From assembly GCF_000026545.1 (NCBI RefSeq), contig NC_011601.1: a stretch of 64,000 nucleotides of DNA; one strand, given 5' to 3'. Origin of the DNA: Escherichia coli O127:H6 str. E2348/69. Its GTDB lineage: Bacteria; Pseudomonadota; Gammaproteobacteria; Enterobacterales; Enterobacteriaceae. Below, piece by piece: positions 9,161 through 15,100 of this stretch. Made by a program: the position numbers. How positions within the stretch are numbered: the first letter of the stretch is position 1; the number at the start of each line of letters is the position of its first letter.

Positions 9161-12100
9161 TAACCGCTGATTTAACCGGCGCAGTCTCTCCTGCGCCGGT
9201 GTATTAACCTATCTCCTGTAACGCATGTCTCTGGCGTTCGACGATATTGGTCCACAAATTGTCTTTATCGTCAGTCCACAAATTAATCAGCAAGGCAAAA
9301 AAGCGTTCAGCTGCCGGAGAAAGCACGGCATCTTTGCGGCGAATAATCCCCAATGTCCGACGTATAACGGGTTCCACCAGTGGGATACCAATAATCGAAG
9401 AATAGGGCGCATGGGGCATTGCCAGACCAGGAAGCGCCGAAATCCCCAGTCCCGCCTCCACCAGCCCTAATGACGTCGAAAGATGACGCACTTCGTAAAA
9501 CCAGTCCAGCTTCCAGGGCTTGTCGGCTAGCTGTTGTTCTATCAACAGTCGGTTGCCGCTGGAGGAGCGTACGCCAATCATTTTGTAACCCACTAACTCC
9601 TGCCATTCTACAAGCTGCTTTTTGGCCAATGGATGGTCACGCCGACAGGCCAGCACGAACGGCTCGTTGACCAGTGGGGTAAAATCAATGGATGAATTTG
9701 TGACGTTGTTCATGTTTATGCCAAAGTCTGATTCGTTACACAGCACCGATTCCATGCAATTATTCGTGCCTTGTTCCAGAATCCGCACTTTAATATTGGG
9801 ATACAGCTCATTAAATTTACCGATTGCCAGCGGTAAAAAATAAAATACTGCGGTCGGAATACACGCTAACGTCACCATACCACGATGATAAGCATTCATA
9901 TCACGAATATTAAAAAGCGTTTCATCGAATTTTTTTATTAATTCCCGCGCCTCCGGGAGCAACCTTTTTCCTGCTTTTGTTAACGTAACCTTGCGAGTTG
10001 TACGCTCAAATAGTTGAATGTGTAAATCTTCCTCCATCTTTTTTATTCTTCGCGTTAATGCAGGTTGCGTAATATTGAGTAATTTAGCAGCATTGTTAAA
10101 TGAACTGGACTCTGCCAGTATGACAAATGCCTTCATACTTGATAATTCATGCTTCATTATTACTCCGGAAAATGGAAGCGACGATTTTGGGTGACTGGCC
10201 GTTAAAAATTTTAACTGCATTTAGCCAACTTAAATTAATGAAAAAATGTTATTAATCGTTGAGCTAAAGTCATTAGAGATGCTTTGCCCTTAATGTAACC
10301 ATATCGCAATAAGTTATGTTTTTAAATTGAGGGCATTATTATGAAAAAAATACCCTGCGTGATGATGCGAGGTGGAACCTCGAGGGGCGCGTTCCTGTTA
10401 GCGGAACATCTACCCGAAGATCAAACGCAGCGCGATAAAATATTGATGGCAATTATGGGTTCCGGTAACGATCTGGAAATTGACGGTATTGGCGGCGGTA
10501 ATCCGCTGACCAGTAAAGTCGCCATTATTAGCCGCTCCAGCGATCCGCGTGCAGATGTCGATTATCTGTTTGCTCAAGTTATCGTCCATGAGCAACGTGT
10601 CGATACCACGCCTAACTGCGGCAATATGCTGTCTGGCGTTGGGGCATTCGCCATTGAAAATGGTTTGATTGCAGCGACTTCGCCAGTTACCCGCGTACGT
10701 ATCCGCAACGTCAATACGGGTACGTTCATCGAAGCTGATGTGCAAACGCCAAATGGTGTTGTCGAGTACGAGGGTAGCGCCAGAATTGACGGCGTACCGG
10801 GTACTGCCGCACCGGTTGCGCTCACTTTCCTGAATGCCGCCGGAACGAAAACCGGAAAAGTCTTCCCGACGGATAATCAGATTGATTATTTTGACGATGT
10901 CCCGGTGACCTGTATCGATATGGCGATGCCAGTTGTCATTATTCCTGCTGAATATCTGGGAAAAACAGGCTATGAATTACCGGCAGAGCTGGATGCCGAC
11001 AAAGCATTATTAGCCCGCATTGAATCTATCCGTCTACAAGCGGGTAAAGCAATGGGCTTAGGCGATGTCAGTAATATGGTTATCCCTAAACCTGTACTTA
11101 TTTCTCCAGCGCAGAAAGGCGGGGCAATTAATGTGCGTTATTTTATGCCGCATTCTTGCCATCGCGCTTTGGCGATAACCGGTGCTATTGCTATTTCCAG
11201 TAGTTGTGCATTGGAAGGCACCGTCACCCGACAAATCGTCCCTTCTGTAGGATACGGCAATATCAATATTGAACACCCCAGTGGTGCGCTCGACGTTCAT
11301 TTAAGTAATGAAGGTCAGGATGCCACGACGTTACGCGCATCTGTTATTCGGACGACCAGAAAAATATTTTCCGGTGAAGTTTATCTTCCCTGAAAAATTT
11401 TGTTGTCGTGATAATGATACTCAATAAAGGAATTCTGTATGAGTCATACAGAAAGAACAGGATATTAAATGAATAAAAAATCGTTATGGAAGCTAATTCT
11501 GATATTAGCGATCCCATGTATTATTGGCTTTATGCCAGCTCCGGCAGGATTAAGCGAACTGGCGTGGGTGCTTTTTGGTATTTACCTGGCGGCCATTGTG
11601 GGGCTGGTTATCAAGCCTTTCCCGGAACCTGTCGTACTGTTAATTGCCGTCGCCGCATCGATGGTCGTGGTGGGTAACTTATCAGGTGGGGAATTTAAAA
11701 CCACCGCCGTATTAAGCGGTTACTCTTCCGGTACCACCTGGCTGGTGTTTTCTGCGTTTACTTTAAGCGCCGCGTTTGTAACCACAGGCTTAGGTAAACG
11801 TATTGCCTATCTGCTGATTGGTAAAATTGGTAGCACTACCCTGGGTCTGGGTTACGTTACGGTATTTCTCGATCTGGTACTGGCTCCGGCAACACCGTCT
11901 AACACCGCGCGTGCGGGCGGCATCGTGTTACCGATCATCAACAGCGTGGCAGTGGCTTTGGGATCAGAACCGGAAAAAAGTCCGCGTCGTGTTGGACATT
12001 ACCTGATGATGTCCATTTACATGGTCACCAAAACCACCAGCTATATGTTCTTTACCGCAATGGCGGGGAACATTCTGGCGCTGAAAATGATCAACGACAT

Positions 12101-15100
12101 TCTGCACCTGCAAATTAGCTGGGGTGGATGGGCGTTAGCCGCCGGATTGCCGGGCATCATTATGCTGCTGGTCACCCCGCTGGTGATTTACACCATGTAT
12201 CCACCAGAAATTAAGAAGGTGGATAACAAAACCATCGCTAAAGCGGGCCTTGCCGAACTGGGACCGATGAAAATCCGCGAAAAAATGCTGCTCGGTGTCT
12301 TTGTACTGGCGCTGCTGGGCTGGATTTTCAGTAAGTCTCTGGGGGTTGATGAATCCACCGTGGCAATCGTTGTTATGGCAACTATGCTGCTGCTGGGCAT
12401 CGTTACCTGGGAAGACGTGGTTAAAAATAAAGGCGGCTGGAATACCTTAATCTGGTACGGCGGTATTATCGGCTTAAGCTCCTTATTATCGAAAGTTAAA
12501 TTCTTCGAATGGTTAGCTGAAGTCTTTAAAAATAACCTGGCATTTGATGGTCACGGTAACGTTGCTTTCTTCGTTATTATTTTCCTCAGCATCATCGTGC
12601 GTTATTTCTTCGCTTCTGGTAGTGCCTATATCGTTGCCATGTTACCGGTATTTGCCATGCTGGCGAACGTCTCCGGCGCACCGTTAATGTTAACCGCGCT
12701 GGCACTGTTGTTCTCTAACTCCTATGGCGGCATGGTTACTCACTATGGCGGCGCGGCAGGTCCGGTCATCTTTGGCGTGGGTAATCCTGGTGGTTGGTCG
12801 GTGCGGTACTGACGATATTAACCTTCCTGGTGCATATCACCCTCGGCGTGTGGTGGTGGAATATGCTGATCGGCTGGAACATGCTGTAAATATACTCGTC
12901 ATACTTCAAGTTGCATGTGCTGCGTCTGCGTTCGCTCACCCCAGTCACTTACTTATGTAAGCTCCTGGGGATTCACTCGCTTGTCGCCTTCCTGCAACTC
13001 GAATTATTTAGAGTATATCCATTTATTAGCTTTCTGCGCACTTCACGGTGCGCAGATATCTGGAGTATTTGATGATCAAGTTATCTGAAAAAGGCGTGTT
13101 TCTCGCCAGCAATAACGAAATAATTGCCGAAGAACATTTCACCGGCGAAATAAAAAAAGAAGAAGCAAAAAAAGGCACTATTGCCTGGTCTATTCTCTCT
13201 TCTCATAATACGTCCGGAAATATGGATAAACTTAAAATTAAGTTTGATTCATTAGCCTCTCACGATATTACCTTTGTTGGTATTGTACAGACCGCTAAAG
13301 CGTCCGGTATGGAACGTTTCCCGCTGCCGTATGTGCTGACCAACTGCCATAACTCACTCTGTGCTGTGGGCGGCACCATTAACGGTGATGACCATGTTTT
13401 TGGTTTATCGGCGGCCCAGCGTTATGGCGGTATTTTTGTGCCACCGCATATTGCGGTCATCCATCAATATATGCGTGAAATGATGGCGGGCGGCGGCAAA
13501 ATGATCCTCGGGTCAGACAGCCATACCCGTTACGGTGCGTTAGGGACAATGGCGGTTGGCGAGGGCGGCGGCGAGTTGGTAAAACAGCTGCTTAATGACA
13601 CCTGGGATATCGACTATCCGGGCGTGGTTGCGGTGCATCTGACCGGAAAACCTGCGCCGTATGTGGGGCCGCAGGATGTGGCGCTGGCTATCATCGGTGC
13701 TGTGTTCAAAAACGGTTACGTCAAAAACAAAGTGATGGAGTTCGTAGGTCCCGGTGTTGCAGCGCTCTCTACCGATTTCCGTAACAGCGTTGACGTGATG
13801 ACCACTGAAACGACCTGTTTAAGTTCTGTCTGGCAAACCGATGAAGAAGTCCATAACTGGCTGGCGCTGCACGGTCGCGGCCAGGATTACTGCCAACTTA
13901 ACCCTCAACCAATGGCGTACTACGATGGCTGCATCAGCGTTGATTTAAGCGCCATCAAACCAATGATTGCGCTGCCATTCCACCCGAGCAACGTGTATGA
14001 AATCGACACGCTGAACCAGAACCTGACCGACATTCTGCGTGAGATTGAAATTGAGTCCGAACGCGTGGCGCACGGTAAAGCCAAACTCTCGCTGCTGGAT
14101 AAAGTGGAAAATGGTCGCCTGAAAGTGCAGCAGGGGATTATCGCGGGCTGTTCTGGCGGTAACTACGAAAACGTCATCGCGGCGGCGAATGCGCTGCGCG
14201 GTCAATCCTGCGGCAACGATACCTTCTCGTTGGCGGTTTACCCGTCATCACAGCCGGTGTTTATGGATCTCGCCAAAAAAGGTGTGGTCGCAGATTTGAT
14301 TGGCGCAGGCGCAATCATCAGAACCGCGTTCTGCGGCCCATGCTTTGGTGCGGGCGATACGCCAATCAACAACGGTTTGAGTATTCGCCACACCACGCGT
14401 AACTTCCCGAACCGCGAAGGCTCTAAGCCAGCTAATGGGCAGATGTCAGCGGTGGCGTTGATGGACGCTCGTTCTATCGCTGCGACTGCGGCAAACGGTG
14501 GCTATTTAACCTCTGCCAGCGAACTCGATTGCTGGGACAACGTGCCGGAGTACGCCTTCGATGTAACGCCGTATAAAAATCGCGTCTATCAAGGCTTTGT
14601 GAAAGGGGCGACCCAGCAACCGCTGATCTACGGACCGAACATCAAAGACTGGCCGGAATTGGGCGCGCTGACTGACAATATCGTCCTCAAAGTGTGCTCG
14701 AAGATTCTCGACGAAGTGACCACCACCGACGAACTGATTCCTTCCGGTGAAACCTCTTCTTATCGTTCAAATCCGATTGGTCTGGCGGAGTTTACCCTGT
14801 CACGCCGCGATCCAGGTTATGTTGGCAGAAGTAAAGCGACTGCCGAGCTGGAAAATCAGCGTCTGGCGGGAAATGTCAGCGAGCTGACAGAGGTGTTTGC
14901 GCGCATTAAGCAGATTGCTGGTCAGGAACATGTTGATCCGCTGCAAACTGAAATTGGCAGCATGGTTTATGCGGTGAAACCAGGCGATGGTTCTGCGCGT
15001 GAACAGGCGGCGAGTTGTCAGCGTGTGATTGGCGGTCTGGCGAATATTGCCGAGGAGTACGCGACTAAACGCTATCGTTCTAACGTCATCAACTGGGGGA

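Follow-up and report, generated by a model that had tools for sequence, protein, structure and literature searches.

A 13-bp deletion leaves ybhI frameshifted, and probably a recent pseudogene, in the Escherichia coli E2348/69 lineage

The window analysed here is a stretch of 64,000 nucleotides from Escherichia coli O127:H6 str. E2348/69 (assembly GCF_000026545.1, contig NC_011601.1), and its positions 11469-12889 hold ybhI, a gene of the DASS family (divalent anion:Na+ symporters). The intact E. coli gene, annotated as a DASS-family 'anion permease' (K-12 b0770 orthologue WP_001036475.1; UTI89 WP_001036491.1), lies at the same locus, ybhD/ybhH-ybhI-ybhJ/ybhC. Read directly from the sequence, ybhI in the window spans 1421 nt, two more than a multiple of three. 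An open reading frame (ORF) that begins with ATG at 11469 runs to 12812 and encodes 447 aa with the C-terminal end GVGNPGGWSVRY, and an ORF in another frame stays open to the TAA at 12887-12889 and ends in LVGAVLTILTFLVHITLGVWWWNMLIGWNML. The ORF lengths and the span are plain readings of the sequence, in which chance plays no role. They agree with the original prediction, made from the sequence alone, which had placed the end of the main ORF at 12812 and the final helix in a different frame up to 12889, and had noted that the span from start to final stop was not a multiple of three. The parts of the gene are as follows.

11469-12889, + strand: ybhI, whole; annotated as a pseudogene by the Prokaryotic Genome Annotation Pipeline (PGAP), 'anion permease; frameshifted', locus tag H4J01_RS17545 (coordinates 1770-3190 in its record)
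11469-12812, + strand: truncated ORF of 447 aa, made up of 438 native and 9 out-of-frame residues; TGA at 12810-12812
12782-12783, + strand: deletion junction, with 13 bases missing (TACAACGATATTA in UTI89, TATAACGATATTA in K-12); placement unique
12783-12809, + strand: nine out-of-frame codons (NPGGWSVRY), from the deletion to the premature stop
12785-12889, + strand: stranded native C-terminal coding remnant in the -1 frame (SWWLVGAVLTILTFLVHITLGVWWWNMLIGWNML), with the last hydrophobic helix; native stop TAA at 12887-12889

The K-12 and UTI89 ybhI genes are ordinary coding sequences of 1,434 nt for 477 aa, and alignment of the 3' end with both of them gives a single 13-column gap and no other gap in the coding part. 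The original prediction had proposed such an alignment to reference ybhI and an inspection of reads at 12775-12800, where the lesion does lie. One of its two explanations was a small deletion truncating the host transporter, and it named reference ybhI alleles with the same end as evidence that would count against the frameshift. The alignment returned one 13-bp gap with its junction at 12782/12783, which removes the last transmembrane helix, and the K-12 and UTI89 alleles do not end there but run to 477 aa. Compared with the intact UTI89 allele, the window gene is nucleotide-identical save for the deletion, that is, 13 bp shorter with 0 substitutions across the whole gene. The common prefix (1,314 nt) and common suffix (107 nt) add up to exactly 1421 nt, the full window gene, so the deletion is uniquely placed between 12782 and 12783, where the flanking bases are GGCGTGGGT on the left and AATCCTGGTGG on the right. 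Codon 438 ends at nucleotide 1,314, the deletion point. The 13-bp loss after this codon shifts the reading frame, and translation adds nine unrelated residues before stopping at the TGA (12810-12812), which is 77 nt short of the native stop. A TAA made by the junction at 12782-12784 closes the upstream end of the native C-terminal frame. Relative to its intact orthologues, the gene carries an indel that is not a multiple of three and a premature stop, as a frameshifted pseudogene does.

The intact allele contains a 10-bp direct repeat, ACGATATTAA, in two copies 38 nt apart; the copy that survives in the window lies at 12812-12821, and the deletion takes 4 bases upstream of the first copy and 9 of its 10 bases. 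Slippage between direct repeats was considered as the mechanism and rejected, because the deletion end-points share 0 bp of junction microhomology; they also lie off the repeat. The reverse polarity, an ancestral short form with a 13-bp insertion elsewhere, is excluded, as the long form is found in ~5,330 genomes, in a Citrobacter homologue, in the Pfam profile and in the plant DiT proteins.

Megablast searches of the 5,426 complete RefSeq genomes of E. coli were used to trace the allele. Identity of 100% over 1,601 nt was found in NZ_CP059840.2 (E2348/69), NZ_LT827011.1 and NZ_LT903847.1, the latter two also O127:H6, and the next-best genomes (UTI89, NU14, APEC O1, IHE3034 and others) reached 99.2% with a match of 1,614 versus 1,601 nt. 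Queries of 201 and 91 nt centred on the 3' end gave the same picture, with these three complete genomes alone sharing the window sequence. With the 91-nt query, the deletion junction was present in only 3 of the 5,426 genomes, all of the E2348/69 type; ~5,326 genomes matched this query at 80-90% identity, and the sequence was 13 nt longer in every such genome examined. In ~113 genomes no match extended over 80% or more of the 1,601-nt query, and the same query had a median of 5 match places per genome because an enterobacterial repetitive intergenic consensus (ERIC) element lies in the spacer downstream of ybhI.

The deletion is reproducible across records, as expected of a true pseudogene lesion. 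Four complete assemblies, each of a different length, carry the allele in identical form, namely the original genome (CAS08195.1; 4,965,553 bp), CP059840.2 (4,944,462 bp), LT827011 (4,848,621 bp) and LT903847 (4,792,490 bp), and the same junction is present in ~10 draft contigs of NCBI, ENA and Logan origin. The exact 447-aa product occurs on 15 contigs of a public gene-position index (5 of >1 Mb, 9 drafts of 20-50 kb and 1 of 2-5 kb), and it is on record as CAS08195.1 (UniProt B7ULP3), SLM05709.1 and SNU22460.1; assemblies of Logan and ENA contain it as well. Two E2348/69-type records match the window base for base over stretches of 6,201 and 5,344 nt. The draft GCA_049977505.1 (JAAPGR010000053.1) carries the same deletion and an A/T single-nucleotide polymorphism (SNP) relative to the window at 10776, in ybhH, and given this SNP it does not simply duplicate the same record. 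The 90% cluster of the protein has 3,961 members, and the others listed, a Citrobacter freundii homologue included, are 477 aa long. The absence of substitutions relative to UTI89 and the confinement of the allele to E2348/69-type records point to a very recent event, and the sequence comparison indicates that the deletion arose in the immediate ancestry of the original isolate or later. We consider it highly probable that a single 13-bp deletion after codon 438 has recently turned ybhI of the E2348/69 lineage into a true pseudogene.

At the protein level, the truncated product consists of 438 native residues followed by NPGGWSVRY, and 39 native residues at the C-terminus (Y439 to L477) are gone; past residue 438 the intact protein continues as YNDIKSWWLVGAVLTILTFLVHITLGVWWWNMLIGWNML to 477 aa. 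Intact YbhI aligns to the Pfam family PF00939 (Na_sulph_symp, DASS) over profile positions 2-472 of 472 with 648.1 bits, and the truncated product over positions 2-436 of 472 with 603.6 bits; both forms score above the curated cut-off of 27 bits. By Kyte-Doolittle hydropathy, the intact protein has its last hydrophobic segment at residues 444-472, and the truncated protein has none like it after residue ~416. The truncated product would accordingly be a DASS protein without the complete fold, of which the final C-terminal transmembrane helix is a part. In the VcINDY-type fold, TM11, the last helix, comes after the second hairpin and TM10 and is part of the mobile transport domain, adjacent to that hairpin and to the TM10 substrate site. 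By analogy with that fold, removal of the last helix is expected to destabilise the substrate-carrying domain.

Solved relatives with the DASS fold include the chloroplast proteins DiT1 (9mcr, E = 1e-83) and DiT2.1 (9mcu) and a 'DASS family sodium-coupled anion symporter' (6wtw/6wu1). These proteins show full-length homology to YbhI, with E-values from 1e-83 to 3e-69, and the homology includes the C-terminal helix. The alignments reach YbhI residues 471-472 and come within 2-3 residues of the chain ends, which marks the C-terminal helix as a conserved part of the fold; the WW motif at the start of this helix is also kept in DiT1. Unlike the window product, these relatives are intact, and their substrates and coupling modes are not transferable to YbhI by homology alone. 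Both SNT-type motifs of YbhI, SNT at 144-146 and SNS at 416-418, lie upstream of the deletion and are present in the truncated protein. Two such motifs, one per inverted-repeat half, were described for VcINDY, as cited in PMC5318444, which also places YbhI among the bacterial DASS members. Judged by homology, ybhI is a DASS member by descent, and its predicted product is incomplete. Because the lost helix belongs to the core fold and is conserved from bacteria to plant plastids, we infer, on good grounds, that truncated YbhI is non-functional.

Four other accounts were weighed. The second explanation offered by the original prediction was an assembly error, in which the true E2348/69 chromosome would have an intact ybhI and 13 bases would have been lost in assembly. 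The evidence for the deletion does consist of assemblies and contigs rather than raw reads, and single-base frameshifts elsewhere, such as the 1-bp gap beside a CCTGG motif in strain S115, may be artefacts. However, loss of 13 bp from non-repetitive, non-homopolymer sequence is atypical as a sequencing error (no homopolymer of at least 5 was found), and recurrence of the junction in the four different-length complete assemblies and ~10 draft contigs effectively refutes an error, the more so as the SNP in one junction-bearing draft separates that draft from the record of the window. We regard an assembly or sequencing error as extremely improbable and, on the agreement between assemblies, the 13-bp deletion as real. 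Still harder to credit, with next to no probability, is that a programmed -1 ribosomal frameshift, or translation of a separate 31-codon ORF from a TTG (12794-12889), restores the C-terminal helix. The -1 frame is indeed open from 12785 to 12889 and has a TTG at 12794, but rescue would be possible only within the 25 nt of 12785-12809, and this interval contains neither an X_XXY_YYZ heptamer nor a homopolymer run of the kind that programmed frameshifting uses. A rescued product would still be without residues 439-443, and the gene is a simple intact frame in thousands of genomes. As the deletion is recent, with 0 substitutions relative to UTI89, selection would have had no time to act on a recoding signal. 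Programmed frameshifting and restart were both rejected, given the lack of a slippery heptamer or homopolymer in the rescue window and the youth of the arrangement.

A further possibility, which we consider unlikely but the least so of the four, is that the deletion is real and the 447-aa protein works fully or partly as a transporter, in which case the gene would be a shorter allele and not a pseudogene. In the 447-aa protein, 438 of the 477 native residues (92% of the length) and both SNT-type motifs remain, so residual activity is possible and weighs against inactivation; the protein's Pfam score is still 603 bits, and the original genome annotation deposited the 447-aa ORF as a normal coding sequence for a 'predicted transporter'. 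Against a working allele stand the conservation of the lost helix, both in PF00939 (positions 437-472) and in the solved plant and bacterial homologues, the 477-aa length of all other listed cluster members, and the position that TM11 would occupy in the mobile transport domain according to general knowledge of the VcINDY-type fold. It is also conceivable, at a clearly lower probability, that loss of the C-terminus is adaptive or consequential in enteropathogenic E. coli (EPEC) E2348/69, or that the truncated protein interferes with the dimeric DASS assembly. In an adaptive case, for example, uptake or exchange of host-derived di- or tricarboxylates would be stopped while the ybhH and ybhJ enzymes remain. 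These proposals have no positive support, and the allele apparently belongs to one lineage and is without sign of age. The favoured account, a recent pseudogene, describes a deletion that is lineage-restricted and probably inactivating, and probably an ordinary strain-specific gene loss.

The feature is already known, being annotated in public records as frameshifted. The PGAP pseudogene H4J01_RS17545 on NZ_CP059840.2 (E2348/69) is the same feature and corresponds exactly to window positions 11469-12889, and CAS08195.1 (UniProt B7ULP3), from the original E2348/69 genome, is identical to the 447-aa ORF of the window. We note that the annotations conflict, with the 2008 submission and UniProt B7ULP3 giving 'predicted transporter' and no pseudogene flag in the names shown, and PGAP giving 'frameshifted'. 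Literature that combines ybhI with 'pseudogene' or 'DASS' yielded general mentions only.

Two other ybhI lesions were found in complete genomes, both different from the E2348/69 deletion and independently arisen. Strain S115 (NZ_CP158441.1) has a 1-bp deletion at gene nucleotide 1330, equivalent to window position ~12785 and 3 nt downstream of the E2348/69 deletion. This 1-bp deletion lies directly 5' of a CCTGG (Dcm) motif, and it may mark a fragile spot that was hit independently, or it may be an error of long-read basecalling at a methylated site. RM14721 (NZ_CP027105.1, 3292-4066) has an IS1 element in place of ybhH and all of ybhI except the last ~66 nt, with ybhD and ybhJ remaining. The S115 and RM14721 lesions suggest that ybhI is dispensable in E. 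coli, with sporadic loss or breakage in strains that are normal in other respects.

The genes on either side of ybhI are intact in the window.

9204-10157, - strand: ybhD, divergent, LysR-type regulator, 317 aa, intact
10341-11393, + strand: ybhH, PrpF family, annotated as 4-oxalomesaconate tautomerase, 350 aa, intact; protein identical to K-12 WP_000723652.1
13072-15333, + strand: ybhJ, aconitase-family hydratase, 753 aa, intact

Little polar effect of the lesion on ybhJ is expected from the sequence, because the premature stop lies only 77 nt before the native one. The ybhI-ybhJ spacer is filled by the ERIC element (12890-13018), which has terminal inverted arms of 26 nt. Within this element there are exact matches to what we take to be the primers ERIC2 (12933-12954, - strand) and ERIC1R (12955-12976, + strand). 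Further downstream, a lambdoid prophage lies beside ybhC (15473-16756); its integrase is at 16891-17961, and it runs to at least ~50,000 in the annotation range viewed. The annotation lists an integrase, an excisionase, CI/CII-like regulators, NinB/E/F/H, Q, a lysis cassette, and terminase, portal and capsid genes. At ~33058-33420 and ~33817-34776 (converted coordinates), the prophage holds a PGAP-annotated RusA-family pseudogene with an internal stop and an LpxR-family lipid A deacylase gene. The deacylase is an apparent cargo gene, and the same stretch includes several partial genes. The prophage is not evidently linked to the ybhI deletion; its presence accounts for the wording 'host transporter' in the original prediction.

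The ybhD-ybhHIJ cluster takes part in a poorly defined di- or tricarboxylate metabolism. YbhD is a repressor of ybhH(I), and deletion of ybhD in K-12 gives an L-malate-linked growth phenotype (PMC9068703). The deleted allele encodes a product without Y439-L477 and hence without the last membrane-spanning helix of the DASS fold. If this product is non-functional, E2348/69 would have kept the two enzymes of the ybhHIJ cluster that ybhD regulates but not its transporter. This is a caveat for the use of E2348/69 as the prototype EPEC strain, in which a working YbhI is probably absent, and phenotypes tied to the ybhD-ybhHIJ cluster may differ between E2348/69 and K-12 or other E. coli.

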